This document shows, one piece after another, positions 59 through 42,366 of a stretch of 64,000 nucleotides of DNA (position 1 is its first letter; the number at the start of each line of letters is the position of its first letter). This DNA comes from Klebsiella phage vB_KpM_FBKp24: sequence record MW394391.1; one strand, written 5' to 3'. Both the position numbers and the translations under genes were made by a program. Below the pieces are notes generated by a model. That model was not told the origin of the DNA and did no database searches. It saw nothing but the letters and a program-made list of their open reading frames with translations.

Positions 59-499
59 TTAGGGATAAATTCCGTAAGATTCCCACTCTACCAAACCCAC
101 GGGCGTCAATAAACCCCGTCCAATTTCCTGCTCCCGATCTTTCTGTTTATCCTTTTCAGAAAAGTCGTCAATGCGCATTAACCTATTTGATGCCAAAAGG
201 TGATTCCCTTTATTCCCGCACAGGCTTTCGTAGTGGATAACTTTAGGGGAGATTGTACGCACCCCTTCGTCAGTGTTAAAACTTAGTATAGCTGTAGTAC
301 TAAGTTCCCCCTCCAATAACCATAGCGTTTCCGTTGTGTCCCCTGTTCCGCGAATTTTCTGATCGTGGTTTAAAAAGAAAATATGAATTTTTTCGTTTTT
401 AGGTATTAATTCCACAACCCTGACTACTTTCCCGACGTTATCAAGGTGTTCGGGGTCGCTGATCACGAGCGCTAAACAACCCGCCTCGATTGGTTTCAT
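59..499 (-). CDS. hypothetical protein (146 aa)
   Basis: ORF in the minus-strand gene train; 4-nt overlap with the upstream gene 496..876. Confidence 0.5.
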   Translation of the reverse strand: MKPIEAGCLALVISDPEHLDNVGKVVRVVELIPKNEKIHIFFLNHDQKIRGTGDTTETLWLLEGELSTTAILSFNTDEGVRTISPKVIHYESLCGNKGNHLLASNRLMRIDDFSEKDKQKDREQEIGRGLLTPVGLVEWESYGIYP

Positions 500-10724: not shown

Positions 10725-12029
10725 TTAGTTCAGTTTCCTGCGCTCCTGTACGACAATCTCCCCTTCTTTCAGGTAGATTTTCTTACGCGGTTTACGCAGG
10801 GCTTTCGCCAGCGAGATGTTTTCTGAAGGCGTGACTTCGAAAGCCGGGAGTCCAGCAGCAGCGCGAGCCTCAATGGCTTCCATCGGTGTAAGCAGACGGA
10901 AATGTAATGGTTCCCCCATGTAATGACGACCATCACGCATTAACGCCGGTTCGATCTGAGTTTTGTCAGTCAGGTTAGTGGTGATGATCATTTTACGTGT
11001 AATAGCGCTTCCTACGCCATCGGTTTCGTTCAGCAGTTCAGCCATCATTTCGTTACCATGGCTACGTGGTGCGATCAGAAGATCACCGTCTTCTACGATA
11101 ATCACCGGGAATGCGGGTTCTTTCCTTTTTACCCCAATTTCTACAGTGGGAAGATTAGGTTGAGTTGCCATCTGGTCAAATATTTTACGCTCTTTAAACA
11201 AAACATCGCGGCCTGCGCCGTTAATGACCTGCGCTTTCTCCATGTAATTGTCACTGAAGTTGAAGATAGAAGAAATGAAATCTTTGTATTCGATCACTTC
11301 CTTTTTCTTCACGTAGATCGGCATGAGATTCAGCGCTGTGGCCGCAGAAGAAATAGCCGTGGATTTCCCGGTACCGGGTTCGCCCATCAGGATCAGTACT
11401 GTTTCATCGGAAGCGATAAAGTCTTCGATGAGGTTAACAATCCCACCGTCAAGGTAGGGGTAAAATGCGTTGTGAGTATGGCCAGAGTGCTGAATTTCCT
11501 TTTTCTTCAACCCCAATCCCTCACCAAACATATTTTTCTCAATGACGGTCTCGTAATAGTAACGACTGTCGTCTTTTGGCGGCTCCGTCGTGTCAAGTTT
11601 GATGTTTTCACGGACAGCCGCCCATAAGGCGTCATAGAGATCTTTTGACAGAATACCAGAGAATTGCAGTAGCGTCTTCTCCCCGCCAAGCACACGAAGA
11701 AAACCGACAGGGCGATTGTAGCGGTCCAACGCGATAAACTGGTCGTCGTCGTACTGAAAGAAACCGTGTTTTTCCAGGAATACGGAAACCCACTGTGTTT
11801 CCGAGAAGTAGTGGATAGACGCGTTTATGTAGTCGCTGGAATCAAGACCAAAAATTGGTAATTGATTGGCGGCCAGAAAGTGACGCACCATATTTTTTGG
11901 AGAGAGCTCATCATTATCGTTGCCGACCAATGCAGCGAATGCATCATAAGCCTCAGCGAATGAATCAAAAACGTCATTCAGTAATTTGTGAGAGCGAGTG
12001 AGATTTGCTACAGCATTAGAATAAGACAT
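10725..12029 (-). CDS. AAA+ ATPase with N-terminal domain of unknown function (434 aa)
   Basis: Walker A GEPGTGKS, Walker B VIIVEDGD, and LLNETDG...ITTNL...EPALMRDGR segments typical of classic or BCS1-type AAA modules. Confidence 0.8.
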   Translation of the reverse strand: MSYSNAVANLTRSHKLLNDVFDSFAEAYDAFAALVGNDNDELSPKNMVRHFLAANQLPIFGLDSSDYINASIHYFSETQWVSVFLEKHGFFQYDDDQFIALDRYNRPVGFLRVLGGEKTLLQFSGILSKDLYDALWAAVRENIKLDTTEPPKDDSRYYYETVIEKNMFGEGLGLKKKEIQHSGHTHNAFYPYLDGGIVNLIEDFIASDETVLILMGEPGTGKSTAISSAATALNLMPIYVKKKEVIEYKDFISSIFNFSDNYMEKAQVINGAGRDVLFKERKIFDQMATQPNLPTVEIGVKRKEPAFPVIIVEDGDLLIAPRSHGNEMMAELLNETDGVGSAITRKMIITTNLTDKTQIEPALMRDGRHYMGEPLHFRLLTPMEAIEARAAAGLPAFEVTPSENISLAKALRKPRKKIYLKEGEIVVQERRKLN

Positions 12030-14954: not shown

Positions 14955-16199
14955 TTACCCCTTCACGCAGACTATTTGTTTCAACGTAAAAAGAACTTCC
15001 ACGAGATCGTCTTGCGAACGCATTACATCGTCAATGTTCTTATACGCTTTTGGTGTTTCATCGATGACATCTTTGTCTTTGCGGCATTCGACGCCTTCAG
15101 TGTCACGTATTTGATCTTCTACTGTGAAGACACGTTTTGCTTCTCCACGGGACATCAGACGACCGGCGCCATGGGAACACGAGCAGAATGATTCTGAATT
15201 CCCTTTCCCGCGTACCACAAATGTTTTTGCACCCATCGACCCGGGAATAATAGCGAGATCGGTTGTCCTGGCTCTGACCGCCCCTTTACGGGTAACAAGG
15301 ACGTTTTGATCAAAGTGATTTTCCAGCGCAACGTAGTTATGATGACAATTGATGGCGGTCACTTTATTCTCGAAGGGTTTTTGTAAAACCTTATGCAGCG
15401 CAATCAGTGTTGCATTGAGCATAATGGCGCGGTTTACAGCCGCGAAGTCCTGTGCCCATTGCACAGCTTCTAGGTAGTCTTTGTAGTAGACCGACCCTTC
15501 CGGTAAATAAGCCAGGTCGTCATCAACTAAATGGATAAAGAAACGCGCCATTTCTTCCTTTGCTTTCTCAATGAAGAAACGACCAATTGCGTTACCTATA
15601 CCGCGAGAACCGGAATGAATTACTATCCAAAGTGAGTCATTCTGGTCGAGTGATAATTCAACAAAATGATTGCCGCTACCCAACGTTCCTGCGTGTGAAG
15701 CAAAACGGTTCGCGTTACGTAACAGAGTAGGGTATTTATCAGTGATGAACTTCAAGCGATTCTCTAATGAGACTAACTCGGCTTTAAGCTGTAGCGTTAA
15801 GTTTTGAGGGTCATTATTACCCCACGCTCCCCGGTCGTTCGGCCCACCGTTATCGGTACGGCCATGGGGGATGAGTTGTTCAATCGCGCTACGAATACCG
15901 GAAAGATCTGTTGGTAAGTCCTCGCGTTTTAACGATGTCTGTTGACCCACCAACCCGCAACCAATGTCAACACCAAGCGCAGCAGGAATAATGGCCCCCT
16001 TTGTTGCAATGACAGAACCTATTGTCGCACCCATCCCCCAGTGGACATCGGGCATGACTGCGATATGCTTGAAGATAAACGGTAAGGTAGTGAGGTTATG
16101 AAGTTGTTTTTCTGCCTGCTCTTCCACTGGGACAAATTTTGTCCAAGATTTAATGTTGACTTTGTCACCTTTAATAAAAACAATATTTGAATCTGACAT
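14955..16199 (-). CDS. rtcB: RNA-splicing ligase RtcB (3'-phosphate/5'-OH RNA ligase)
   Basis: Hallmark RtcB motifs: HWGMGATIGSV, GSGNHFVEL, HSGSRGIGN, NCHHNYV, CSHGAGR. Confidence 0.95.
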   Translation of the reverse strand: MSDSNIVFIKGDKVNIKSWTKFVPVEEQAEKQLHNLTTLPFIFKHIAVMPDVHWGMGATIGSVIATKGAIIPAALGVDIGCGLVGQQTSLKREDLPTDLSGIRSAIEQLIPHGRTDNGGPNDRGAWGNNDPQNLTLQLKAELVSLENRLKFITDKYPTLLRNANRFASHAGTLGSGNHFVELSLDQNDSLWIVIHSGSRGIGNAIGRFFIEKAKEEMARFFIHLVDDDLAYLPEGSVYYKDYLEAVQWAQDFAAVNRAIMLNATLIALHKVLQKPFENKVTAINCHHNYVALENHFDQNVLVTRKGAVRARTTDLAIIPGSMGAKTFVVRGKGNSESFCSCSHGAGRLMSRGEAKRVFTVEDQIRDTEGVECRKDKDVIDETPKAYKNIDDVMRSQDDLVEVLFTLKQIVCVKG

Positions 16200-17517: not shown

Positions 17518-17820
17518 TTAGAGCACCTTATTAATCAAATACAGTTTCACCCGGACAATAACTTCATGACAATAGTCGTTATCAGAGATCGCTTCTAAAG
17601 CAGAACATTCGATAGCAGTAAGAATCCTTCTTGGTTGCCACCCGCCTGCCAGCGCCGCATCAATGAATCCCGTCCAATCAATAGTGAATCCTGCGTTAAA
17701 TATTTTACCTACTGCGATATCTAACGGCAAACCGTGAGTAGCCACCAGGAAGAACAATTTATCTCCCGAGAACAAATTATTTTTCATTTCGCAATTTCCC
17801 TCCGATTGCATCGATTTCAT
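17518..17820 (-). CDS. hypothetical protein (about 90-100 aa)
   Basis: ORF; weak resemblance (THGLPLDIAVGKI...GFTIDW) to an alanyl-tRNA-synthetase segment, unverified. Confidence 0.4.
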   Translation of the reverse strand: MKSMQSEGNCEMKNNLFSGDKLFFLVATHGLPLDIAVGKIFNAGFTIDWTGFIDAALAGGWQPRRILTAIECSALEAISDNDYCHEVIVRVKLYLINKVL

Positions 17821-19069: not shown

Positions 19070-19377
19070 TGTACAATGATTTCTTCGTAAAGTTTATTTG
19101 CTGATTCTTGGTCGTGAAAATGAAACCACTCGAAATTGCTGGGGTTGGAATAATAAAGTACCCCGATGGACGGTTTAGATTCACCCCAGAGCGGGAAATG
19201 TTTTTGAATAGGTGGCGTGACATGTACCAATTCATCGAAATTGACGACACGGCCATTGATCACAATTTTCTTTAGGTTAGTATCGGCCATGTTATGAAAC
19301 CCCCTTGTTAAGAGTGAAATGAATATGAGACTGGACGACGGTATTCTAACTTTCTTTTGCCCGGGTTGCGAGACCAC
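19045..19377 (-). CDS. hypothetical protein; true start probably Met MADTNLKK at about 19290
   Basis: ORF; the N-terminal extension overlaps the plus-strand gene start. Confidence 0.4.
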   Translation of the reverse strand: MVSQPGQKKVRIPSSSLIFISLLTRGFHNMADTNLKKIVINGRVVNFDELVHVTPPIQKHFPLWGESKPSIGVLYYSNPSNFEWFHFHDQESANKLYEEIIVQWHLRKTK

Positions 19378-19657
19378 CCATTCTGTTTCGGTCGAACCAA
19401 CTGACCCTTGTTACTGGACGTGGAATGGGTCGTTAGAGAAACCAACGTTATCTCCGAGTGTTTTGACCCGCTCCGGTCATTACGTGGACGGTAGTCATGG
19501 TTGCTGGTGTAACTATTATACCGCGCACCCGGAAGAAGAAGTTGTCTTTAAGTGTTATCGCTGCCACAGCTTTATCCGCGACGGCAATATTGAATTCCTT
19601 TCTGACTGCAGCCATAAATTGGCAGGGCAGACTGTTCCTTTAGATCCATTAAAGTGA
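19319..19657 (+). CDS. zinc-ribbon-like small protein (112 aa) on the plus strand
   Basis: Two CxxC pairs (FFCPGCETTH ... FKCYRCHSF); 112 stop-free codons where no minus ORF of 60 aa or more exists; followed by bidirectional hairpin 19667-19692. Confidence 0.5.
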   Translation: MNMRLDDGILTFFCPGCETTHSVSVEPTDPCYWTWNGSLEKPTLSPSVLTRSGHYVDGSHGCWCNYYTAHPEEEVVFKCYRCHSFIRDGNIEFLSDCSHKLAGQTVPLDPLK

Positions 19658-19667
19658 TATAGGCGTG
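19652..19667 (-). promoter_or_regulatory. recurrent promoter-like motif (minus: CACGCCTATATCACTTT)
   Basis: Follows the bidirectional hairpin 19667-19692; oriented antisense to the plus gene 19319..19657. Confidence 0.35.
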
Positions 19668-19692
19668 AAACAGGGTCGATACGACCCTGTTT
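19667..19692. terminator. bidirectional hairpin between convergent plus and minus genes
   Basis: aaacagggtcg-atac-gaccctgttt stem-loop, U-rich on both strands. Confidence 0.55.
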
Positions 19693-19704
19693 CCGTTTGT
19701 GCTA

Positions 19705-21096
19705 CTAACCCACTTTTTTCATAGTAGAATAACTGACCGCTTCCACGGGTTTAGTGACATCATATTCCCGCAAGGCAATTTCAAAGGTCTCAGGGCTATG
19801 TTTATTTAACATGAACAACGCCTGTACTGAGGCACCCGGTAAAGGCGGGAAAGGAACTGGACTACGGGGTTCTGCATCAGGAAACGCCATTTTGAAGAAG
19901 CGGCGAATCTCTTTGTCCCCCAGAACTTCAACCTCTACACGAATGTCAATTCTACCATCCCTTAGAATTGCATCGTCCAGTTTCTCAGGGTGATTCGTGG
20001 TCAAGAACACAATGACATCATTCAGACGCATTACGCCATCTAGTGCGTTGAGGAAATCAGACAAACTCCCATTCAGGTATTCGTCCATTGCCTTGTCGTC
20101 TGATTTCGTTTCTTCTAATGTCCCCGGTACCCCGTGAGGCATTTCGATAACATTCAACCCAGACGACTCTTTTTCCTTTTCTTTTAATTCAACTATTGTC
20201 TTTTCTTTACTGCGTGCTTTCGTAAAAGAGTAAGTATCAATATCCTCGATGATGACAACACCACCCGCCGCGCGCTGGAATAATGCCTGATATTGTAATC
20301 CGCCGCTCGGTTTAAGGGTATGAATGTTACGACCTAAAGCCCCAGCCAGTGCGGAAATAAGACTGCTCTTACCAGTGCCAGGTAGCCCATAAAGTAATAC
20401 TGTAAATTTATAAGGTAATCCCCGCGAATGGTACCACTCTTTACTCCGACTAAATTCAAAGACGGGTTCAATCAATCCTTTTTGTACATTATCAGTAACA
20501 ACAATAGTGTCCAGGCTCCGCTTAGGGAGACGGCAGAGGTATTCCCAATTGGCGGTATTGTTGACAAATGCACCGACTGTATTTTTAGTGTCACTTTTCA
20601 CCATGAACGCATCCATCAGTTCGAGTATTGCCTTATGGCTTCGCCCAAACTTACTGATACTCAACCGGTATTTAGAAGCATTAGACGCATTGGCGTCTAT
20701 TTCAATGATTTTAAATACAAAGAGCGTACCGCGATAGAAAAAGAAATGAGAACCCACACCCGGACCTACCGCGCCGTCCGTCCCACTACTTTCCCCATCG
20801 ATAGTAATCGTTCTGCTCCAGTGAAACCAACTGTTCAATGAGAACCAATTAAGGAAGGCAGTGTACTGCTCTGAGTTATAATTAGTCCAGTTGGTGCTGG
20901 CAGTATTGAAAATCAAACTGGTAACGAATTGCCTTTTAACCCACTGAATCACCGCTTTGGGGGTTTTGATTAAACCCCAACCGATTGCGCCTGAGACAGC
21001 TAAAGAACTCGCAGTAACAATCGCGTTCTGTGCCATGGGGTAATCTTTAAAGTTAGACAATATATGGTCGTAAAACGACATTAGCTGTTCAAGCAT
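19705..21096 (-). CDS. BCS1-like AAA+ ATPase with N-terminal hydrophobic segment (463 aa)
   Basis: LLYGLPGTGKSSLISALAG, VVIIEDID, NALDGV...VIVFLTTNHPEKLDDAILRDGRIDIRV match the BCS1 pattern; N-terminal stretch AIVTASSLAVSGAIGWGLI. Confidence 0.8.
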   Translation of the reverse strand: MLEQLMSFYDHILSNFKDYPMAQNAIVTASSLAVSGAIGWGLIKTPKAVIQWVKRQFVTSLIFNTASTNWTNYNSEQYTAFLNWFSLNSWFHWSRTITIDGESSGTDGAVGPGVGSHFFFYRGTLFVFKIIEIDANASNASKYRLSISKFGRSHKAILELMDAFMVKSDTKNTVGAFVNNTANWEYLCRLPKRSLDTIVVTDNVQKGLIEPVFEFSRSKEWYHSRGLPYKFTVLLYGLPGTGKSSLISALAGALGRNIHTLKPSGGLQYQALFQRAAGGVVIIEDIDTYSFTKARSKEKTIVELKEKEKESSGLNVIEMPHGVPGTLEETKSDDKAMDEYLNGSLSDFLNALDGVMRLNDVIVFLTTNHPEKLDDAILRDGRIDIRVEVEVLGDKEIRRFFKMAFPDAEPRSPVPFPPLPGASVQALFMLNKHSPETFEIALREYDVTKPVEAVSYSTMKKVG

Positions 21097-21149: not shown

Positions 21150-21190
21150 AAAAAGCAAAAAAAAAAGAGGAGGGAAATCCCTCCTCTTTT
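21150..21190 (-). terminator. intrinsic terminator hairpin
   Basis: aagaggaggga-aat-ccctcctctt stem-loop followed by a U10 run on the minus transcript. Confidence 0.75.
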
Positions 21191-21193
21191 AGC

Positions 21194-21358
21194 TTATTCT
21201 AAATCGTTGAGTTCCTGACGCACGATCTTTTTATTGATACGACGCTCGGCGCGGTGAGTGAGCAACTTGGAGTACGGTCCCGGAATAGTCGGATTACCTG
21301 GGCGGGCGCTCCAATATTCTTGGCTCTGAGCCTTACTGCCGCGTTTGGTTCTTGCCAT
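21194..21358 (-). CDS. small basic protein (54 aa, MARTKRGSKAQSQEYW...); alternative to track ORF 21199..21414
   Basis: AGGA ribosome-binding site 7 nt before ATG, Lys/Arg-rich, ends just before terminator 21150-21190; the overlapping 71-aa track frame has no ribosome-binding site and an odd composition. Confidence 0.35.
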   Translation of the reverse strand: MARTKRGSKAQSQEYWSARPGNPTIPGPYSKLLTHRAERRINKKIVRQELNDLE

Positions 21359-21417
21359 CTTTTGAGTCCTCGAGTTGAAGTATGTAATCGAGGACGGACT
21401 TGAAAGTAATGCATAGC

Positions 21418-21801
21418 TTACCCCGCTGTAAATATTAAGAGTTTCTGATCAAAGTCAAAGTCTTGATGCCGAGCCATCAAAAAAGTTGAGAGTCCTTCAT
21501 AGTCGTTCCATCGATCGTCGTTCTGTTCATTGCTACACGCAATAATTTCAGAAATAATCATTGGGATATCTTCCTTACTAACAACCCACGGACCCAGTTC
21601 GTCGTTAGGGCAGATATTAACCCGTGCCATAATTTCAACTAGTGTACGCTGATTCTTCCACGTCGCTAGCCTTTTAGGCGCCACCGCGTCGTCATCGAAA
21701 ACTTCGTCGTATTCAAGTGTTTTCCCTACACCATCTTCGCCTGTAACCGGTTCCGGTACAGTCTCTTTATCGACCGAATAAAACGTGAGATAAAAGCCCA
21801 T
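21418..21801 (-). CDS. hypothetical acidic protein (127 aa)
   Basis: ORF downstream of the macrodomain gene in the same unit. Confidence 0.5.
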   Translation of the reverse strand: MGFYLTFYSVDKETVPEPVTGEDGVGKTLEYDEVFDDDAVAPKRLATWKNQRTLVEIMARVNICPNDELGPWVVSKEDIPMIISEIIACSNEQNDDRWNDYEGLSTFLMARHQDFDFDQKLLIFTAG

Positions 21802-22167
21802 CTATTCTCCGCCCCAGAAATAAGTTAAGATTGAATCAAAGTCAGCAATCTCCCAGAAAGTATCCAATTCAAGCCACGAGTCGATAATATCTAAGGGACC
21901 TTCTTTCATCCATTTGTCCAGTAACTCCCGAATCTCTTCGCCTGTTAAAACGAAGTGTATTCCTGGACGAGGGAGATTGTATTTGGCTTGTACCAGTTTA
22001 TGAAAATCTTCTGCCTGTACCCCGCTGATCCCTCTCATCGCTAACACCGGACCAAGGTGATGGCCGTAGGTTAAATACTGACGAGTCTCTCCTGCTTCAG
22101 TTTCGTAGGTAGCGATCTTTTCAGGAATAACACGGTCACGCTGAAATTCTCTGAGCTCAACGAACAT
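21802..22167 (-). CDS. hypothetical protein (121 aa)
   Basis: ORF in the same unit as the macrodomain gene. Confidence 0.5.
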   Translation of the reverse strand: MFVELREFQRDRVIPEKIATYETEAGETRQYLTYGHHLGPVLAMRGISGVQAEDFHKLVQAKYNLPRPGIHFVLTGEEIRELLDKWMKEGPLDIIDSWLELDTFWEIADFDSILTYFWGGE

Positions 22168-22172
22168 AGTCT

Positions 22173-22646
22173 TTAACCCTCAAACCGATAGACGATAATT
22201 TCAAAATCAGTATCCGAAAAAACCCGCTTGATATTTTCACTCACGCGCTCCCAGTCACCACCTGCTAACCCGCACCCCAATAGAGGGAAACCGACTTTTA
22301 AAACCCTCCCTTCCTTTTTCAGGATAGAGGCCATTAGTTTCAACGCCAGATAAAGAGCAGCGTAATGGGTTTTATAGTCAGGGTGCGAATGTTCGTGATG
22401 AAATTGACCACAAAGGTTGAAGCCCCATTGATTCCCATTCTTAGCAGCAGTTAATTTCCCCAAGCGTTTGTTGTAAGGGCGCTTATCGGAAAAGTAAGAT
22501 TCCGCTAACCAAGGCAATGCTTCGAATATTTTAACAGCAATACCGCTCTTAGCGACCCCAAAGCAATTGACTTGGTGGGCTATGACGTCAACTTCCTTAT
22601 TAAGAAAGGCTTCAATCAAATCCCCTTTTATTTCAGTGTATTTCAT
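22173..22646 (-). CDS. macrodomain protein, TARG1/OARD1/DarG-like (157 aa)
   Basis: KGDLIEAF...VDVIAHQVNCFGVAKSGIAVKIF and VGFPLLGCGLAGGDWERVSENIKRVFSDTDFEIIVY align closely with the TARG1-type macrodomain (GDLF..AHCIS.DCRMGAGIAV ; MPRIGCGLDRLQWENV...ITVY). Confidence 0.8.
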   Translation of the reverse strand: MKYTEIKGDLIEAFLNKEVDVIAHQVNCFGVAKSGIAVKIFEALPWLAESYFSDKRPYNKRLGKLTAAKNGNQWGFNLCGQFHHEHSHPDYKTHYAALYLALKLMASILKKEGRVLKVGFPLLGCGLAGGDWERVSENIKRVFSDTDFEIIVYRFEG

Positions 22647-22664
22647 AGCCCGCTCTCGCCGTGG

Positions 22665-23282
22665 TTAATTGATGATGAATTTACATTTTTCGAGGTGGTA
22701 TTCTTTCCCGCCAAAGCAGAGTTTCTTAACGTAATCCGGACGAGGGAGATTAACGTTCTCTGTGTAGGCGTTATGGGATACTAACGACTTGTTAACGACT
22801 TCGCCTTTGTTGTATTCAACGAGCCGACCGGGGAATTCTTGGGAAAAACCAAACCCCGAGAATTTCAATTTTACATGCGAATGAAAAGAGAGATTTCGCC
22901 AACCTGGGAATTTCAACCCTTTCACGTGGGCAGCGATAAAACGAATCAACGCAGTGTAAACTTTACCCAGTTCACCCGTGGTAATGACTTCGTCTTCGTT
23001 ACCGAAACGGAAGATGACTTTGGAATCGTGACCATCTTTATTACGGTACCAGTCGACGACAAAACGAGAGTAGTAACCGTAGAGACCATTCTCTGGCGTA
23101 CTGCGGTTACGGTAAGACTGCGCCGTATCGGAGTCGTACCGGTAGCACGTATTGTGCTCAAAAGGCTGACCCCGTCTGAAACCGATGAACTGCGCGAGCT
23201 GGACCGCCTGGATTAATGTCAGGTGTACGATCGTACCTAACTTGTTAGTAAGAATAAAGATAGGACTTGAAGCTGTTTGCAT
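22665..23282 (-). CDS. hypothetical protein (205 aa) immediately upstream of the TARG1-like macrodomain
   Basis: ORF; no confident catalytic motif; candidate ADP-ribosyltransferase by context only. Confidence 0.55.
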   Translation of the reverse strand: MQTASSPIFILTNKLGTIVHLTLIQAVQLAQFIGFRRGQPFEHNTCYRYDSDTAQSYRNRSTPENGLYGYYSRFVVDWYRNKDGHDSKVIFRFGNEDEVITTGELGKVYTALIRFIAAHVKGLKFPGWRNLSFHSHVKLKFSGFGFSQEFPGRLVEYNKGEVVNKSLVSHNAYTENVNLPRPDYVKKLCFGGKEYHLEKCKFIIN

Positions 23283-23287
23283 TCGTT

Positions 23288-23887
23288 TTACTCCTGCAGC
23301 AGTTTGGTTATTTCACCAATGAACTCGGAATGGTCTTCTATTTTATCTCGACCAATCTCCGAGCCCGTAATTTGATCATCAACATAACGAGAGACCAAGG
23401 CGTTGATTTTCCCAGCGGGACTGGAAAGGAATTCATCTGACTCAGCGTAATCAGCATTCCAGTTACGAATATAGAATGAAGGGTTAAAGGTCTCTGTCGT
23501 TCGGAAGTCAGGGAGTTTACCCACCATTAAAAGTTCCAACGAAGGAGAATAATGTACACCGTATTCAGTTCGACCGGTGTACTCGTTAAGTTCTGCCTTT
23601 GCCCAAATATTAAAACTGTCTATAATCCATACCCTGCTACATTTTAGAGCAATCTCCCTTTTCCAATCAGCAAGCGGGCCGTCTTGTAACATCGCTGAAA
23701 TATGCTCGTCGCTCATTATGACTTCGTAATAGTTCCGCCGGTTGAAATCTTCTAATCTCCTTTTTAAAAGGGAAAACAGATTCTGCTGCTCGGCGCTGAT
23801 AAAAGCGTCGTAATACTTATTGGTAATAAGATCTCTTTCTACTTCTGACAGCGGTTCTTTAAGAAAACCGAGTTTTGTTCTGGACAT
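23288..23887 (-). CDS. hypothetical protein (199 aa)
   Basis: ORF in gene train. Confidence 0.5.
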   Translation of the reverse strand: MSRTKLGFLKEPLSEVERDLITNKYYDAFISAEQQNLFSLLKRRLEDFNRRNYYEVIMSDEHISAMLQDGPLADWKREIALKCSRVWIIDSFNIWAKAELNEYTGRTEYGVHYSPSLELLMVGKLPDFRTTETFNPSFYIRNWNADYAESDEFLSSPAGKINALVSRYVDDQITGSEIGRDKIEDHSEFIGEITKLLQE

Positions 23888-23896
23888 TTTTACTCC

Positions 23897-24304
23897 TTAA
23901 TTAAAGTTGAACACCAATCGTTCAGCGCCCGATTCTTTGAGGATGTTTAATTGTTCGAACCACCACTCCCCAAGATGTTCCCGCCAACTCGCCGTTACGC
24001 CTTCCCCTTCGGGAAGAGTACTTCTTCCATCGCCACTACGGTCTTCTACGAGCGTATCGTAGTCAAAGTCCAGTAACACTTTGACATCCAAAATATAGTT
24101 ATAATCGTAATCGTAACTGATAGGTCTCCCTGCCTTTTCCCATTTATACGGCAAAGGAGGAACGCCAGCCATATTCCTTACGTCAGCGAGCCAACCGTAA
24201 ATAAAGTAGTTCTGGAAATCAAACCAATCCGCTCCTCCAGAAATAATCTCCCATTTCCCTTCTTTGTTTTTCTTCTCAAACCGTCCCTCGATATAAGCGC
24301 CCAT
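23897..24304 (-). CDS. hypothetical protein (135 aa)
   Basis: ORF in gene train. Confidence 0.5.
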   Translation of the reverse strand: MGAYIEGRFEKKNKEGKWEIISGGADWFDFQNYFIYGWLADVRNMAGVPPLPYKWEKAGRPISYDYDYNYILDVKVLLDFDYDTLVEDRSGDGRSTLPEGEGVTASWREHLGEWWFEQLNILKESGAERLVFNFN

Positions 24305-24307
24305 GTT

Positions 24308-25525
24308 CTAGTCTCCGTAGTAATAACTGAAGGTGAAGGTAAACCCGTACTTGGTGTATTCCGGTGAAATATGGAAGATCTGTGCGGGTTTACTTTCCTT
24401 CATAGCGGGGATACGTTCTTTTAATGCATCCAGTGCGATGTCCACTTGGGTGTTACTTAGTTCAGAAAGAGTTATTGTCGCGCAATAGGTAGCGGTGAAT
24501 ATATCTTTTCTATTCCAGCCGACCGCGTGAGAGACAGATTTACCGTCGTCCCAGTCTTTAACATACTGGCGAAGTGTTTGTTCCGTAAAAGACAAATCTA
24601 ACTTCGGTACACTGATCATCTTTTCTTTAATTAATGAGACTAGCGCCCGAGTCAACGTAATTAAAGAAACCTGTTGTACTTGACCGCTGGCGCCTGAATT
24701 TAATTTTCGGATAAAATGGCCAATGAGTTGAGGGAGTTTATTGATCATTTTATTAAAAATAGTATCGTTAGGTGGTTTTACGGGAGGGAAGCAAATTGAC
24801 AATATAACTTTATCCCGATTACCCCCAATTCTTTCCACAGAGTATTCCGCGTAGAGCGAACCGTCTTCCCCGAAAGAAAGTTCAACGTCCTTTCTAACAG
24901 CTGAGGAACCTATCACATCTCGCGCGTCATCAAAAGTGATACTATAGGCTATCGGGGAAACGTTGTTATCTTTGCTCCGCCGGTAATTTGTAAGGACACT
25001 AGTAACCGCGAGGTGCGGGGCGTTGAGGTCCTCTAGGGTAGCGACGATGTCTTTCATTTTAGTCTCCTGTTTATTACTGAGGGAATTATCGACGAAGGTA
25101 AAAATAGCTTCTATTTCTTCGACGGGGTTAATAACATGACTACGGCTCATGTACGAGGTTATTAACCTATTTAGTTTTTCGATCAGTTCTTTTTCTGAGG
25201 CAACACCCACGTAACCTTTTTTCTGCCACTCAAAACGAATATCGAAATGAATAGAGTAGCGATCATTGTCAGGAAGTACTGGTCTTGTAAAATGAGTGAC
25301 AGTACCGTCTTTAATTACAATATCGATACGAACCTGATCTATCGCGTCGCTAATGAATTTTGGAACACTCCAGCTATATTCTAGCTCAGGATTCGGGGTA
25401 GTGGGTTCGCAAGACAGTGTAAATTTCGGGAAAGGAGAATAACTGACATTGGCTTTAAATAAATAAAATTTACCTGCTTGAAAATCTTTAACAATTGAAT
25501 CGTTCTGACCTTTTGAATAGTTCAT
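24308..25525 (-). CDS. hypothetical protein (405 aa)
   Basis: Long ORF. Confidence 0.55.
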   Translation of the reverse strand: MNYSKGQNDSIVKDFQAGKFYLFKANVSYSPFPKFTLSCEPTTPNPELEYSWSVPKFISDAIDQVRIDIVIKDGTVTHFTRPVLPDNDRYSIHFDIRFEWQKKGYVGVASEKELIEKLNRLITSYMSRSHVINPVEEIEAIFTFVDNSLSNKQETKMKDIVATLEDLNAPHLAVTSVLTNYRRSKDNNVSPIAYSITFDDARDVIGSSAVRKDVELSFGEDGSLYAEYSVERIGGNRDKVILSICFPPVKPPNDTIFNKMINKLPQLIGHFIRKLNSGASGQVQQVSLITLTRALVSLIKEKMISVPKLDLSFTEQTLRQYVKDWDDGKSVSHAVGWNRKDIFTATYCATITLSELSNTQVDIALDALKERIPAMKESKPAQIFHISPEYTKYGFTFTFSYYYGD

Positions 25526-25584
25526 TTTGTCACCTCACACTTTTACCGTAATAGAGTCGGAGGAACTCCTCCGACTCTAAGGTT

Positions 25585-25893: not shown

Positions 25894-26024
25894 TAGATTA
25901 CTCCACCCCAAACAATCGCCGCCGCAAATAACCACCAACCCCAGCTATGTTCCCCGTGAAAGAAACCATAGCCTCCAATACCGATTAACACTAAACTTAA
26001 AATACCGGCCATGAAATATTTCAT
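25893..26024 (-). CDS. small hydrophobic membrane peptide (43 aa, MKYFMAGILSLVLIGIGGYGFFHGEHSWGWWLFAAAIVWGGVI), not in the ORF track
   Basis: ATG overlaps the thyA stop (ATGA); GAGGTG ribosome-binding site 6 nt upstream; stop overlaps the next start (TAATG); one transmembrane-like helix. Confidence 0.4.
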   Translation of the reverse strand: MKYFMAGILSLVLIGIGGYGFFHGEHSWGWWLFAAAIVWGGVI

Positions 26025-27412
26025 ACCGACACCTCTATTTTAATCGCAGGGTGGTGTTTGTATTCCGTGAAGACGAAGTCCTCAAAGGTGAGTTCAAATA
26101 ATCCTTTCTTTGGAACGACCACCGCCGAATCGTAATAGTGCTCAGAACGAACAAAACATTCTACTGGTTTATACGGCTCACGAGTAAGCTGTAATTTCAC
26201 TTCCTCGATCTGGTTAAGGTAGATATGGACGTTAGTCAGATTACCAACCAACTGTTTTGGCGCCATCCCCAACTCATGGGCAAAGGCCAGTAACATGAAT
26301 GCGTAGAACGCCTGGTTATACGGTTCGCCGACGGGTAAGTCCACGGAACGCATTGAGTACTTAAGACTCAACCACTGCGTAGGGACATGATTCTCAGTGA
26401 GCCACTCCGCTTTACGTTCTGCCGACATCTTAGGTTGATTACAATGTTCTTCTGCGTAGCAGTCGGACATGTGATCTTCCCAGAGATCCTGGAAGTACGG
26501 GTTAGCGTTATTCGCGCACCAATCCAAACGCTCGCGCAGCGTCATCTCTTCCACGTAGAACTCTACGAGGAAATGACAGGGAGTGAGGCACGGTTTTCCG
26601 TTGATAACGTTTTCCTGCGGTGTCACCTTTACCGTCTTAGTTCGCGGTACCCCGTGACTGGCCAGAAAATCTTCGCAGTTATCGGTCTTACCGTGATCTT
26701 CCAGGCGCGGCCAGAAGATCGCATAAAGGTCCGGGCTGTGGGTTTTTAAATGTTCCCACATCTCGTCATTAGTGAGAGTAACTTCTTTCGTTTCCTCTGG
26801 CATCCAGAGTGGGTTCCACGCCGAGATGAGAATCCGGCGGGATTCTGGATTGTTCCGCAGCAGGTCTAAAACATATGCGACTTGATCAACGCCTTTCTTC
26901 TTAAGCGGGTCTTCCGAGAAGTTTCGCCAGGCGCTACCATACGGCGCATTCAGATCATTTACGTGATGTGCGATTACCGAGCGCGTACGCGGTACGTTAT
27001 GCGAATCCAACCACACGTGACCCTCTTCGACTGGGCGAATAGAGATCTTCTTACTGAAGAACTCGATGTACGCATCTTCGTTGTTTTCTTCCAGCCAACG
27101 CAAACGCTCGTAATTCTCCAACTCCACTTCCGTAGAGACGTTTTCCTTCAACCGCCACGGCGCCCAGAAATCCCCTTTCCCGTCCTCGGTGATCATCGAC
27201 TCCATATGGAGCTCACCATTAAGGATAGAACGGAACTCTCGCCAAGCCAGTTTACGAGAAACAAACTTTGTGGTGAGTAACGGGAACTCACCTTTTGATA
27301 GATCGTATTTTAATCTGGCATCAAAAATACCGATAGTCCCTGTCCCGGTACGATCGCCGCGCACTCGTCCTGTTTCCAAGACTTCCTGGAGTAATTCAAG
27401 GTATTGTTTCAT
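26021..27412 (-). CDS. thyA: thymidylate synthase family protein (ThyA or dUMP hydroxymethylase-like), 463 aa with three internal insertions
   Basis: MKQYLELLQ..GDRTGTGT..FPLLTTK, RRILISAWNP, catalytic PCHFLVEFYV, and LSLKYSMRSVDLPVGEPYNQAFYAFML...NVHIYLNQ all align with ThyA; about 180 extra residues sit in three blocks. Confidence 0.9.
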   Translation of the reverse strand: MKQYLELLQEVLETGRVRGDRTGTGTIGIFDARLKYDLSKGEFPLLTTKFVSRKLAWREFRSILNGELHMESMITEDGKGDFWAPWRLKENVSTEVELENYERLRWLEENNEDAYIEFFSKKISIRPVEEGHVWLDSHNVPRTRSVIAHHVNDLNAPYGSAWRNFSEDPLKKKGVDQVAYVLDLLRNNPESRRILISAWNPLWMPEETKEVTLTNDEMWEHLKTHSPDLYAIFWPRLEDHGKTDNCEDFLASHGVPRTKTVKVTPQENVINGKPCLTPCHFLVEFYVEEMTLRERLDWCANNANPYFQDLWEDHMSDCYAEEHCNQPKMSAERKAEWLTENHVPTQWLSLKYSMRSVDLPVGEPYNQAFYAFMLLAFAHELGMAPKQLVGNLTNVHIYLNQIEEVKLQLTREPYKPVECFVRSEHYYDSAVVVPKKGLFELTFEDFVFTEYKHHPAIKIEVSV

Positions 27413-28609: not shown

Positions 28610-29209
28610 CTATTTACCCGTGCGAGTGTTTACCCAGGAAGACAAATGCTTCAGTTTGTCACGATGAGCGAGTAGCTTGCTCCAGCTTTTCTCGGGTTTG
28701 TTGGTGGAATCTCCAACTACCCTTTGATAGGCGTAGACGATTTGATCGTAAGAAACTTCAGCCGGCATCCCGCCAGTGGCCGTACAGAAGAGAGGCATGA
28801 CAACCTCAGAAATTTTCCTGTCGGGTGTCATCTTATTGAAATAAACAATTTGACAGAATGCAGCGAGGGCCACACGGTAAGCGATATCTTTTTCTTTTGC
28901 GGGGCTAGGAAAACGCATAGTCGGCGCGTAGCACAGCTGTAGATTACCGCCTAAAGAAACAGTAATAGCTTGGCCCACCGGCATTTCTTTACCCCAGAAA
29001 CGCTCGATAGCAAATTGTACTGCATCTTGAGAATCGGGAAATTTATTCGCTATAACTTTGTCGAAGCCGCCATCCATGATCCCGAATGAATTACCTGGCG
29101 TAATAACGCAGTCGTAATCTTTTCCCGGGATCAGCGCATTAAAGTCGCCTTTCTGGTAATGTTGGCGGGGTGAAAGATTTACTCTGTCAACGATCTTTAG
29201 ATTAAACAT
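28610..29209 (-). CDS. macrodomain protein (199 aa), ADP-ribose or ADP-ribose-1''-phosphate binding or processing type
   Basis: DCVITPGNSFGIMDGGFDKVI and VVMPLFCTATGGMPAEV match the macrodomain Gly-rich and catalytic-loop signatures. Confidence 0.75.
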   Translation of the reverse strand: MFNLKIVDRVNLSPRQHYQKGDFNALIPGKDYDCVITPGNSFGIMDGGFDKVIANKFPDSQDAVQFAIERFWGKEMPVGQAITVSLGGNLQLCYAPTMRFPSPAKEKDIAYRVALAAFCQIVYFNKMTPDRKISEVVMPLFCTATGGMPAEVSYDQIVYAYQRVVGDSTNKPEKSWSKLLAHRDKLKHLSSWVNTRTGK

Positions 29210-30555: not shown

Positions 30556-31109
30556 TTCGTGAACACCCAATAAACACTGTAGAAGTTGATCGCATGAATA
30601 CCGGAAGAGAGGGTATCAAGTTCCCCTAGGTCATCAGGGTCAATAAGGTTGACCTTTAACCCTGTCGCCAACAAACGTTTCAGATTGTAAGCCACGGCTG
30701 TCTGAGGAATCCGAAACGTAATCGCTTGTTGGTTTCTGAAGTGACTAACCAAATCGCGAGGGGCATCACCTAAACGTTCTAGATACTTAGCGAACGTTTC
30801 GCCATCTAACCCGTCTAACGACCACTGCCAAACGACACCGTCTGCCGCAACGACAGCCACTCCTTTATAACGATACGGTTTTTGGTATTCTCCCCATTTG
30901 ATACTCTCTGGCTGATAGCAAGAATTGTAATCTGTGATCCTCAGTTCTTCGCCAGGTTCTGCTTCATCGACCATTTCAGCAAAAGCGGGAAGGAGAATAG
31001 TCTCACCGGCAGCGTTTTTAGCATGGGCGACAATTTCACCCTCAGTGAGCCCATAAGCATCAGCTGCGTAAACCCCACGTTCAAACTTCAATTTTATCTG
31101 CTGAGTCAT
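30552..31109 (-). CDS. hypothetical protein (185 aa)
   Basis: ORF, 4-nt overlap with the tpt1/kptA homolog. Confidence 0.5.
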   Translation of the reverse strand: MTQQIKLKFERGVYAADAYGLTEGEIVAHAKNAAGETILLPAFAEMVDEAEPGEELRITDYNSCYQPESIKWGEYQKPYRYKGVAVVAADGVVWQWSLDGLDGETFAKYLERLGDAPRDLVSHFRNQQAITFRIPQTAVAYNLKRLLATGLKVNLIDPDDLGELDTLSSGIHAINFYSVYWVFTK

Positions 31110-31675
31110 TCTTTCTTTTCCTCTATTTTAAAACAGCCAACCGGAACGTGCCTGACTAACCAGACCCCGTTCAACGCTTTGTAGAACACGTAGCCGAGCT
31201 CAATTAATTTCTCGGCATCTACGCTCAGTACCACGAGAGAGCCTTTCTTAGCGTACCGTAAACCCACTAACCGCGCCGTCTCAATGTGATCGGTCAAATG
31301 GACAAACTGACGAGATTGCGGATTGAGTCCGTTCTCAAAAATGCTCTCTAAGTTACCCGATGCGGTACCGTGGTACAAAACCCTAGGAGGGGTCTCTTTG
31401 CTAAAAGACATTTCATTCACTGGGAAAGAATGCCCTTGTACCGCTCTGATTGCCGAAAGGTCTTTGGAAAGACTGAATCGTTTCTTGTCGTCTGTTTCAA
31501 CGACGTACATTAACTCCTCTAAACTGACCTCTTTTTTCTGCTCACTGAAAGCAGCAATAAGATCGTCGAGTTTTACATATCCAAATTCGTCCGGCGTTAA
31601 TTTCAATGCCTGAGGGCGATGACGTAAAACAAAACAGAGCGTTTTAGACAGTTTAATGGGGTCATTCATTAGCAT
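31106..31675 (-). CDS. kptA: RNA 2'-phosphotransferase Tpt1/KptA
   Basis: SKTLCFVLRHRPQALKLTPDEFGYVKLDDL (Arg-His-Arg catalytic cluster), IRAVQGHS, LYHGT, SRQFVHLT match the KptA/Tpt1 signature. Confidence 0.9.
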   Translation of the reverse strand: MLMNDPIKLSKTLCFVLRHRPQALKLTPDEFGYVKLDDLIAAFSEQKKEVSLEELMYVVETDDKKRFSLSKDLSAIRAVQGHSFPVNEMSFSKETPPRVLYHGTASGNLESIFENGLNPQSRQFVHLTDHIETARLVGLRYAKKGSLVVLSVDAEKLIELGYVFYKALNGVWLVRHVPVGCFKIEEKKE

Positions 31676-32180: not shown

Positions 32181-32455
32181 TATCGTTCCCCTATTGCGCC
32201 TAGTTCAGTTTTAACCCAACTAAAACAATATTTCCCTTCGTACTGTGTATTCATGAGCGCCTTAGGAGTGGTTTTGGTAGGATCAAAAACACAGACGAAG
32301 ATACGATTGAAACGTTCTTCTCCCTTGTAGATAAATAACCCCTCGCGATTAAAAACTGCGGATACGAACCCTGGTAAAGTTTTAAGAAATTCTAATGCCT
32401 TTTCTTGGTCTTTTTTAAGGTTCCCTGTTGAAAATTCCACATTAATTACTTTCAT
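32180..32455 (-). CDS. hypothetical protein (91 aa)
   Basis: ORF in gene train. Confidence 0.45.
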   Translation of the reverse strand: MKVINVEFSTGNLKKDQEKALEFLKTLPGFVSAVFNREGLFIYKGEERFNRIFVCVFDPTKTTPKALMNTQYEGKYCFSWVKTELGAIGER

Positions 32456-33161
32456 TATTATTCCCCTGTGCAGTTAGACCAAAATAATGACATTTACCTT
32501 GCGCAGCAACTCGGTATTTCTTTGCGTGCGCTGCACCAAGCGCAGTGTAAAACTTGAGATTGCTGATGTAGTCAATATTCCTTTCCGTAAACTCTTCACG
32601 TGTCTGCCCGAACCGAATACCGATCTCTTGGTACAACCCGTTAAAGATATCTTCATCGAGATAAGACATTGCGTAAAGTTGATCGGCGTCCCGAATAATG
32701 CCGAATAAATAACGCATACCGGTACCACCGGGATACTGCGGAAAAGGGTCGTCGAAGTTATAATGCGTGAATCCAACTAATAAAGTGATCATCGCTTTAT
32801 TAGCCGTAGGAAACTCACACCAGAAACCTAATTGCTCAAGTTGCTGTAAAGCGTGCTCGATATTTTTCCAGTCATCTTTCTCTCCCAAATGACAGAAATC
32901 GTGAACTAACCCTGCAATGACGGCTGATTCAAAATCCTTCTCAGAGAGTCCGTAATTTGATGGCTCAAGATTAGAAAGAAGATAACTTGTTAATACACCA
33001 ACGCCAATTAAATGGTGCGTAGAATGATAAGGGCGGTCGACGTTGTGTTTTTCCACCCACTGCATCATTTTACCGTATCGATTAAAGAATTGTCGTCCCC
33101 AGATAGGGTTAAACTCTTCTAACGAATACGCTTCCCAGAAGTTTGAAAATTCACTATTCAT
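32442..33161 (-). CDS. HD-domain metal-dependent phosphohydrolase (239 aa)
   Basis: HSTHHLIGV ... LVHDFCHLG ... IRDADQL give the H..HD..D signature. Confidence 0.7.
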   Translation of the reverse strand: MNSEFSNFWEAYSLEEFNPIWGRQFFNRYGKMMQWVEKHNVDRPYHSTHHLIGVGVLTSYLLSNLEPSNYGLSEKDFESAVIAGLVHDFCHLGEKDDWKNIEHALQQLEQLGFWCEFPTANKAMITLLVGFTHYNFDDPFPQYPGGTGMRYLFGIIRDADQLYAMSYLDEDIFNGLYQEIGIRFGQTREEFTERNIDYISNLKFYTALGAAHAKKYRVAAQGKCHYFGLTAQGNNNESN

Positions 33162-40299: not shown

Positions 40300-40989
40300 T
40301 CATTTATTGGTTTTGGTGATATACCATTTCCAAAGACCGTAGAACGCGTTCATCAAGAACACCGCCCATTGCGCAACCTGCGCCCATGAACCCGGTTGAT
40401 TAAGCGCCGGGATCACCCACAGATAAATCGTGACGCAGTTGATAATGATCCAGAGAATCCATTGCTCTGGCTGCTGCTTGATCATCATCCACATGGCGAT
40501 GAGCGATGCGACTAAGCAGAATGCGTCTAAGGCAGGAAACGGATCCTGCGTCGTTTTCAGGTATTCGGTCAGGCCATACCAGAAGATAACCCCAACAACC
40601 AGATATGTTATCACGTCACGTAAAGTGATCGTTTTAACCGCTACGTCAGCTTTGGCTGGAGTTTTGCCCAGGTCTTTCGTCCAGTAATAAATACCGATAA
40701 ACTGCATGGGAAGGTAAATAGCGTTCAACGCCGCATTCGCGTAGAGTCCGGTATTGTACGAAACAATACCGTAGGTAATTACACCAACGGTTCCCCAGTA
40801 GTAATTGGAGACACGACCTTTCGCTACCAGAATAACGCAGATCACGTTAGTCAGCGCCGCCGTAAATTCAAGTGGGCTGGCGCTCCAGCTACCAGCGCCC
40901 ACTAAGATCAACGCAATGATCAGCCAAAGGTATTCGACTTTCTTCCAGTGCGCAAAGTCAGTGAACGTTTTCAATACAAGTGTATTCAT
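40300..40989 (-). CDS. pnuC: nicotinamide riboside transporter PnuC
   Basis: Multi-pass membrane protein aligning with PnuC (YYWGTVGVITYGIVSY..., WILWIIINCVTIYLWV). Confidence 0.85.
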   Translation of the reverse strand: MNTLVLKTFTDFAHWKKVEYLWLIIALILVGAGSWSASPLEFTAALTNVICVILVAKGRVSNYYWGTVGVITYGIVSYNTGLYANAALNAIYLPMQFIGIYYWTKDLGKTPAKADVAVKTITLRDVITYLVVGVIFWYGLTEYLKTTQDPFPALDAFCLVASLIAMWMMIKQQPEQWILWIIINCVTIYLWVIPALNQPGSWAQVAQWAVFLMNAFYGLWKWYITKTNK

Positions 40990-41151: not shown

Positions 41152-42366
41152 TCAATCAGAAGACTTATGGTGACAGCGATCTTCGACACTATCTACCATC
41201 GCCTGAATCAAAGTAGTAATCGATCCGTCAGAAGGCGCGGTTTGGAACTTACCGGGCTCATCTTTCCGTACTGCGTCCCACCCCAGGAACCCTTCGTTAA
41301 ATGCCAGTAATTGATCTACGGCCGCACGGGCTTGATCTAAACGGCCTTTGTACGAGTCGCCAGTAATAAATACCGTACGCCCCCGAGGAGTTTGGTTTTT
41401 AAACTCCAGGAGCATTTGTTGGAATAACCCGTCAGTTTTCTCTCGATCCGGATTTAAACGCAAGCCGTCATCGACCCACGGGACTTCAGGAGACAGTATC
41501 AGAACGAGGTCGTAGTGTTCTTCGGCTGCGATGGCGGAGACGATAGGGTTAGGTTTACCTTCGTACAGACGATGGTAATACTCCGTGACGAAAGCGTTAG
41601 TATCGACGAAACAAAGTCGATTAGAGGTTCGTAACGCTTCCTCCTCCAACTCTTTGTGACGATACGCAATCAACGGGTAGTCAGAACTACGCAGTGTTAA
41701 CTCAGAGCCCGCTAAGACGGTTTCACAGTACGTACGGCCGTACTCTTCTACCCAGCTGGTGTTGTAGAGTTTAGCGAGGTTCTTGACGAGATTTGATTTA
41801 CCCGCGCTCTCGACACCCATGACGACAACCCGCAGACAATAGTCCTTACGGACAATACTGGGGAGATATTCCCAGTTGGCGTAAAGGTTATCACGTACTT
41901 TAGTGGCCGAGATAGGAACACGAGTACGTTCACTGTCAACGATGACGTGCTCAACAAAACCGAGGTGAGTTTTGTATTTCTCATCGTAATCCAGTTCGCT
42001 ACTGAAGATTGCGATAGATTGAGCTTGGCTGTGTTTAGCAGCCAGTTTCCCGGCCTCGCTGAAAATCTTTGCCCCTAATAAAGCGGCGTATTCCTGCCAG
42101 CCGTTAGGATATTCCGGCACCGAAGCTTCGTCGATGAAATCGATCGTAACGTGTTCGGTATCGGCGTAGGTTTGTTGCAACCAGCGCAGACGGTTTTTGA
42201 AGTTCAACACCTGCTGATCGCGGGGAGATTGTTTGTCCAACCAACGTTGGTCGTGAGATAATACCACGAGGACGTGTTTCGATTGGACAGCAGCTTCTGT
42301 AATTAGGTTGATGTGCCCCAAAGTCAGGGGTGCAAACTTACCGATGACGACGCCTAAATCAAACAT
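41152..42366 (-). CDS. nadR: bifunctional NMN adenylyltransferase / ribosylnicotinamide kinase (NadR-type, no helix-turn-helix domain)
   Basis: N-terminal NMNAT motifs GKFAPLTLGH and ISATKVRD; C-terminal kinase Walker A GVESAGKS. Confidence 0.9.
   Translation of the reverse strand: MFDLGVVIGKFAPLTLGHINLITEAAVQSKHVLVVLSHDQRWLDKQSPRDQQVLNFKNRLRWLQQTYADTEHVTIDFIDEASVPEYPNGWQEYAALLGAKIFSEAGKLAAKHSQAQSIAIFSSELDYDEKYKTHLGFVEHVIVDSERTRVPISATKVRDNLYANWEYLPSIVRKDYCLRVVVMGVESAGKSNLVKNLAKLYNTSWVEEYGRTYCETVLAGSELTLRSSDYPLIAYRHKELEEEALRTSNRLCFVDTNAFVTEYYHRLYEGKPNPIVSAIAAEEHYDLVLILSPEVPWVDDGLRLNPDREKTDGLFQQMLLEFKNQTPRGRTVFITGDSYKGRLDQARAAVDQLLAFNEGFLGWDAVRKDEPGKFQTAPSDGSITTLIQAMVDSVEDRCHHKSSD

Follow-up and report, generated by a model that had tools for sequence, protein, structure and literature searches.

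Macro domains are present in 56% of jumbo phages (PMC9503650), and the locus described here raises the question of what such a domain would do when it is encoded on its own, beside a gene of a very rare family. The locus lies in a stretch of 64,000 nucleotides (the window) from Klebsiella phage vB_KpM_FBKp24 (MW394391.1), and its central gene, macro1 (22173..22646, minus strand), encodes a free-standing macrodomain of 157 residues that is, from PDB, profile and PHROG matches, a predicted ADP-ribosyl glycohydrolase. The original prediction called it a TARG1/DarG-like macrodomain and offered two readings: a free-standing, DarG-like eraser of DarT-type ADP-ribosylation of nucleic acids, or an eraser paired with an unrecognised ADP-ribosyltransferase (ART), for which the open reading frame (ORF) directly upstream, ORF205 (22665..23282, minus strand), was the candidate. 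The first of these is the best supported, macro1 being a homologue of Tk.4 of phage T4 and of the cellular protein SCO6735.

Klebsiella phage vB_KpM_Centimanus (300 kb) shares 97% identity with the window region, and the locus recurs in ten more Klebsiella phages of about 300 kb with a protein identity of about 80%. A nuclear shell protein, the tubulin PhuZ and many split RNA-polymerase beta genes are annotated in Centimanus, which identifies the phage as a nucleus-forming, PhiKZ-like jumbo phage (chimallivirus).

Family, active site and proposed function of macro1

A phmmer search of PDB sequences with macro1 matched ten macrodomain chains at E < 0.01, including full-length matches to structures of human TARG1/OARD1 (4j5r, E 5e-7) and to the DarG macrodomain chains 5m31 and 5m3i (6e-6), the latter presumably M. 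tuberculosis DarG. The family phrog_335 was matched at 7.8e-42, and the Pfam Macro model over positions 2-116 of its 118, at 19.1 bits, just below the gathering score of 22. Matches to hidden Markov models of DarG were confined to their macrodomain part (PADLOC, 4e-12; NCBIfam NF048014, 45 bits against a cut-off of 250 and only over positions 8-147 of 338). When a family profile made from an alignment of 27 sequences was searched against PDB sequences, the best structural relatives were two cellular proteins, Bt_1257 of Bacteroides (2fg1, 3e-28) and SCO6735 of Streptomyces coelicolor (5e3b, 3.6e-25), followed by TARG1 (4e-20) and DarG (5e-19 and 6e-18). The full-length matches, together with a Gly-rich phosphate-binding loop, place macro1 in the macro superfamily, and the alignment over its whole length with human TARG1 and with the DarG macrodomain of DarTG2 places it in the ALC1-like class that these two share, both of which reverse thymidine-linked ADP-ribosylation.

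The active site narrows this assignment. In pairwise and family alignments alike, the position of the catalytic Lys (Lys84 in TARG1, Lys80 in DarG) is occupied in macro1 by Gln81, and that of Asp125 of TARG1 by Ala128. Because of these two replacements macro1 is neither a TARG1-type nor a DarG-type enzyme; thus the class named in the original prediction stands, but the subfamily does not. Residues H24, N27 and Q81 and the segment G124-C-G-L-A-G-G-D-W132 are conserved, the three residues and the GCGLAGG loop being invariant or nearly so among the 27 homologues, and H24, N27, Q81 and G126 are equivalent to His24, Asn27, Gln85 and Gly128 of SCO6735. The so-called mobile loop is long, of the length seen in SCO6735 and Bt_1257. 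With Gln at the Lys site, the conserved Asn by which this Gln is stabilised in the subclass, the Gly of the phosphate-binding loop and the long loop all present, macro1 is by its sequence a member of the ALC1/TARG1/DarG class and, within it, of the Gln-type subclass of SCO6735, Bt_1257 and T4 Tk.4. It differs from SCO6735 in that the DNA-positioning residues Lys34 and Lys89 are not kept, with a Lys at 33 instead and a Glu at 85.

Two members of this subclass have been characterised in ways that bear directly on macro1. SCO6735 hydrolyses thymidine-linked ADP-ribose (ADPr) on DNA at a higher rate than do DarG and TARG1, and it relieves DarT toxicity in cells; its activity is abolished by Q85A and almost abolished or strongly reduced by N27S and G128E (PMC9411070). 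In T4, tk.4 has been identified as the single gene needed on DarTG2 hosts, a clean knock-out is sensitive to DarTG2, and the gene has been named adfM (HIDEN-SEQ preprint, 10.1101/2025.11.20.689424). Tk.4 and macro1 are 31% identical (E 5e-21; hhalign probability 99.9%) and belong to the same sequence family: each is free-standing and about 157-159 residues long, with Gln at the Lys site, Asn27 and a GCG(L/I)AGGDW loop. Tk.4 differs in its shorter mobile loop and in its surroundings, since it sits between vs and tk without an ORF205-like neighbour in a phage that does not form a nucleus; the evidence for Tk.4 is genetic, whereas macro1 is known from its sequence.

The family is widespread. Homologues of macro1 were found by tblastn in 2,206 of 50,697 phage records, including T4-like, rV5-like, Felix O1-like, Vi1-like, PAK_P1-like and other phages, and they are labelled 'phosphatase', 'macro domain protein' or 'Tk.4' in the databases. 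On one unrelated phage contig a homologue lies among genes for dUTPase, NT5C, a DNA methylase, NrdD and Pol III alpha.

Lacking the C-terminal DarT-binding domain of DarG, and with no match to DarT/DUF4433 in any neighbouring ORF (Pfam, PADLOC), macro1 would be an orphan eraser and not part of a toxin-antitoxin system; in both respects it departs from DarG, which has that domain and an adjacent darT. We propose that macro1 is a catalytically competent free-standing hydrolase that serves counter-defence as an orphan eraser of DarT2-type ADP-ribosylation of nucleic acids. As a whole this proposal is about evenly poised between being right and being wrong, while activity as a hydrolase, taken by itself, is probable and more so than the whole. 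Acting as an orphan antitoxin, macro1 would strip ADP-ribose off phage nucleic acid, the substrate with the best precedent being the thymidine-linked ADP-ribose that DarT2-type toxins put on single-stranded DNA, and its removal would allow replication and packaging to proceed. Family membership and the residues essential in SCO6735 are directly observed; from them we infer the substrate and the defence system that would be countered.

Judged by analogy, such erasure would be of a known kind, with T4 Tk.4 and SCO6735 as precedents and, for an orphan macrodomain used as an antitoxin by a chimallivirus, PhiKZ AdfM. The PhiKZ protein, gp104 (AdfM), hydrolyses DarT2-modified DNA and protects chimalliviruses (PMC13309987), and NADAR-type orphan antitoxins (AdfN) have the same role against DarTG1. 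Like macro1, gp104 is an orphan macrodomain of a nucleus-forming jumbo phage for which the same logic of an eraser used as antitoxin is proposed, but it is of the Lys type and its similarity to macro1 is marginal (E 0.006 over 41 residues), for which reason it was rejected as a direct orthologue. The orthologue of gp104 in this phage group is CENTIMANUS_00136, a third macrodomain encoded outside the window (OZ240615.1 132246..132692, L018:32246-32692), which keeps the Lys, has the motif ATKDHW, is 33% identical to gp104 (E 2e-23) and has the DarG chains 5m3i (5.5e-20) and 5m31 (1.4e-18) as its best PDB matches. It is thus of the DarG/PhiKZ-AdfM type, which implies that the phage group already has a nuclear AdfM and that macro1 would be an additional eraser; as far as sequences tell, both published 'AdfM' types, Tk.4-like and gp104-like, are held by the same phage group. 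The view that neither reading had been described for such phages is therefore superseded, since orphan macrodomain anti-DarT factors are already published for T4 and PhiKZ and Centimanus carries the PhiKZ type as well. Papers on CmdTAC and on Thoeris and N4-like phages gave no link to phage macrodomains. ICP1 AdfB was also considered as a relative and rejected: it has been likened to the toxin-binding C-terminal region of DarG and binds DarT, and no macrodomain activity is described for it.

ORF205 and its changing partners

ORF205 encodes a basic protein of 205 residues (pI 9.4), with its stop codon 18 nt upstream of the start codon of macro1. It had no match in Pfam, PADLOC, NCBIfam, PHROG or PDB sequences, either singly or as a family of eight members. 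The family is found in 11 phage records and has four representatives among 1.84 billion clustered proteins; elsewhere it appears at one locus in IMG/VR and one in JGI metagenomes, both of the same lineage, and a search of 185,579 GTDB genomes found no cellular homologue (0 of 185,579). On these counts ORF205 is a very rare, phage-only family. It also appears to change rapidly. In one relative, L015, identity to the window is 57% for ORF205 (62-676) but 92-93% for the adjoining macro1 and acidic 121-residue protein. Divergence or exchange is therefore much more rapid in ORF205 than in the genes around it, a pattern that would stem either from local mosaicism or from a faster evolution of this gene alone.

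The suggestion that ORF205 is an ART, possibly a DarT-like toxin whose activity is reversed or limited by macro1, has some appeal from gene arrangement. Order and size of the two genes resemble darT-darG, the coupling is tight (the 18-nt gap in the window becomes a 4-nt overlap in L004), and ORF205 adjoins three types of ADPr-processing genes in four of five lineages. The protein itself speaks otherwise. None of the eight family members matches any ART, DarT, RES or PARP profile, Alt/ModA/ModB and Tpt1 being equally without counterpart in ORF205; neither an H-Y-E nor an R-S-E arrangement can be made out; and the predicted structure, of moderate confidence (pLDDT 71), contains no ART fold and gives only weak matches to PUR/Whirly/PC4-like and immunity-protein-like folds. 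In addition, the ORF205 homologue of L011 has no adjacent hydrolase. As far as the model can be relied on, the writer part of such a pair is largely refuted, and we regard a writer-eraser arrangement as highly improbable.

A different relationship is suggested by what follows ORF205 in its five lineages, in four of which it lies directly upstream of an ADPr-processing gene, of three enzyme kinds altogether. In the window group, with L012 and L015, and in the more distant L004 (ORF205 32% and macro1 53% identical), the gene directly downstream is macro1. In L010 this place is taken by a MacroD-like macrodomain (PF01661, 3.8e-14) that has no similarity to macro1, is 28% identical to the second macrodomain of the window (macro2, see below) and has RtcB two genes further on, and in L009 by a cREC cyclic-phosphate-processing domain (1.1e-10). 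Only in L011 does no hydrolase follow; there an NAD+-binding NLig-Ia domain is encoded two genes upstream. That the neighbour is exchanged for non-homologous enzymes of like function suggests that it forms a functional pair with ORF205. All cases belong to one broad phage lineage with shared synteny (a thymidylate synthase gene upstream and a BCS1-like AAA ATPase gene downstream), and the coupling consequently rests on about three independent events.

On this comparative evidence ORF205 is best described as a putative fast-evolving accessory that is habitually paired with ADPr-processing enzymes. A further step would make it the constant half of a new chimallivirus two-gene module with an interchangeable enzyme, the pair forming a counter-defence unit distinct from the nuclear AdfM; this we put forward tentatively, as a reading that is more probably wrong than right by a clear measure. 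The interchangeable enzyme may then be a Tk.4/SCO6735-type macrodomain, a MacroD-like macrodomain or a cREC domain, and ORF205 could be a targeting subunit that binds single-stranded nucleic acid. Alternatively, ORF205 could be a toxin-binding inhibitor in the role of the C-terminal domain of DarG, in which case the pair would amount to a 'split DarG'.

Points against erasure from DNA, and possible other roles of macro1

Several points weigh against macro1 as an eraser of DarT2-type modification. Its identity to characterised members is 26-31%. Centimanus already has the Lys-type, DarG-like AdfM, beside which another anti-DarT2 eraser would be superfluous if it had the same location and substrate. 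The phage genome replicates inside the protein nucleus, into which macro1 would have to be imported to act on it. In other lineages the partner of ORF205 is a cREC domain or a MacroD-like macrodomain, and RtcB is encoded nearby, which points to RNA repair or to soluble ADPr derivatives; the latter, Iyer et al. argue, are the main targets of macrodomains in phages. Finally, the family profile also matched an ADP-ribose-1''-phosphate phosphatase chain at 2.5e-15. We take this chain to be yeast Poa1p, and the relationship accounts for the 'phosphatase' and Macro_Poa1p_like labels of the phage family.

Another possible role is in NAD+-dependent RNA repair, in which macro1 would clear the ADPr-1''-phosphate or 1''-2'' cyclic phosphate made by Tpt1, or 5'-RNA ADPr caps, and would work with RtcB and polynucleotide kinase after cytoplasmic host nucleases have cut tRNA or mRNA. 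The window does encode a Tpt1/KptA RNA 2'-phosphotransferase (31106..31675, minus strand; PF01885, 2.7e-42), an NAD+-consuming protein of ART fold, and an RtcB RNA ligase (14955..16199, minus strand; PF01139, 4e-120), and Centimanus also encodes Pnk and a DHH phosphoesterase. A KptA-2H-Macro pathway has been described (PMC9503650), the ORF205-macrodomain pair of L010 is two genes from RtcB, and descriptions of the cREC domain, which follows ORF205 in L009, are confined to RNA repair and ADPr>P. Distribution argues the other way. Only 96 phage records contain Tpt1, most of them from jumbo phages of Erwinia and Dickeya, with this Klebsiella group besides, against 2,206 for the macro1 family, most carriers of which have no Tpt1; the function of the family is thus independent of Tpt1, which was rejected as an obligatory partner. 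A more obvious partner for processing the Tpt1 by-product is macro2 (28610..29209, minus strand), a macrodomain of 199 residues and of another class (Pfam Macro_2, 5e-6; sole PDB match yeast 1njr at 1.7e-6, which we assume to be the Ymx7 ADP-ribose-1''-phosphatase), because it lies 2 kb from Tpt1, much closer than macro1. Poa1p, for its part, is more distant from macro1 than SCO6735, TARG1 and DarG are, and the nearest characterised relatives act on ADP-ribose on DNA and protein. We therefore consider RNA repair rather unlikely for macro1, and RNA repair or soluble derivatives disfavoured as the general function of its family.

Macro1 might also degrade a soluble, ADPr-derived immune signal or toxic metabolite, such as ADPr-1''P from RES-type toxins or TIR/Thoeris products, as one component of a wider NAD+ counter-defence kit. 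Parts of such a kit are encoded here: adjacent NadR-like (41179..42366) and PnuC-like (40303..40989) genes, both on the minus strand, resemble NARP3, a two-gene NAD+-rebuilding counter-defence module described in 2026 (PMC13464706), and just beyond the window Centimanus has NAMPT and PRPP synthetase, which are NARP2-like. The genetic and biochemical data on the subclass of macro1 concern only DarT2-type DNA modification, and a soluble substrate appears improbable to us. Erasure of nucleic-acid ADP-ribosylation remains the preferred reading for macro1.

Transcription unit and neighbouring genes

All five ORFs of the original prediction are real and lie on the minus strand: besides ORF205 and macro1, these are the genes for two proteins of 121 residues (w121, 21802..22167) and 127 residues (w127, 21418..21801), whose predicted acidity is borne out by computed pI values of 4.78 and 4.20, and for a basic peptide of 54 residues (w54, 21194..21358; pI 10.6). 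The latter, given earlier as a mere possibility, is a conserved gene (phrog_7399, 1.2e-6; 94% identical in L012 and 52-56% in L004 and L010) and the last one before an intrinsic terminator (21163..21190; 12-bp stem and T11 on the minus strand, bidirectional in appearance). This terminator closes the unit as described, but the unit is larger than had been claimed. From 25525 down to 21418 the genes are spaced by 3-18 nt, and with this tight packing and a terminator only at 21163..21190 the unit also takes in three minus-strand genes upstream of ORF205 (24308..25525, 405 residues; 23897..24304, 135 residues; 23288..23887, 199 residues), which have gaps of 3-9 nt and no terminator between them and gave no informative family match in Pfam, PHROG, PADLOC or NCBIfam. 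Upstream of the unit lies a palindromic 12-bp hairpin (25552..25579) without a U-tract on the minus strand, and it is doubtful as a terminator of a leftward transcript. A scan for sigma-70 promoters returned 10 sites against 12.4 expected, and the phage encodes its own RNA polymerases.

The two acidic proteins were considered as conserved partners of macro1 and rejected, as they are not kept beside it in L004 and w127 is multi-copy. The w121 protein, without a match in Pfam or PHROG, is retained in close relatives (84-93%), weakly so in L011 (39%), and is absent beside macro1 in L004. The w127 protein (phrog_27588, 6e-5) belongs to a small-protein family that occurs in several copies, in tandem or dispersed, in related jumbo phages: three in L010 (7160-7549, 9261-9644 and 10553-10936) and two in L004 (12472-12852 and 12862-13251). 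Another multi-copy family of small proteins has a member at about 98..499 of the window.

Upstream of the unit, the thymidylate-synthase-like gene (26021..27412, minus strand) is unusually long, with 463 residues; its homologue in L004 is split by an ORF for a NUMOD3/I-TevI-type homing endonuclease. On the other side, the BCS1-like gene (19705..21096, minus strand; BCS1 N-terminal domain, phrog_7485 at 8e-113) is a landmark that stays downstream of the macro locus in every related contig, and a second AAA+ ATPase is encoded at 10725..12029 (minus strand). The only plus-strand gene nearby, between leftward units, encodes a Cys-rich DUF6527 protein (19319..19657; 2e-13), and a 12-bp hairpin (19667..19693) follows it on that strand; the terminator at 21163..21190 comes 1.5 kb beyond it. 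Weak AlaRS-like (tRNA-synt_2c) matches are seen in small ORFs near RtcB, both in the window (17518..17820) and in L009 (4482-4895), and Tpt1 is followed by an HD/phosphohydrolase-like gene (32442..33161).

Taken alone, macro1 changes little, as it is one more member of a large family whose T4 representative has recently been shown to counter DarTG2; the unusual part of the locus is not this ordinary enzyme but its rare partner gene ORF205. This phage group combines three macrodomain types (DarG/AdfM-type, Tk.4/SCO6735-type and Ymx7-like) with Tpt1, RtcB and two routes of NAD+ salvage, and would be a good system in which to ask whether each eraser has its own substrate or its own compartment, phage nucleus or cytoplasm. 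The repeated position of ORF205 before non-homologous ADP-ribose enzymes provides a testable lead to an accessory function in ADP-ribose counter-defence.

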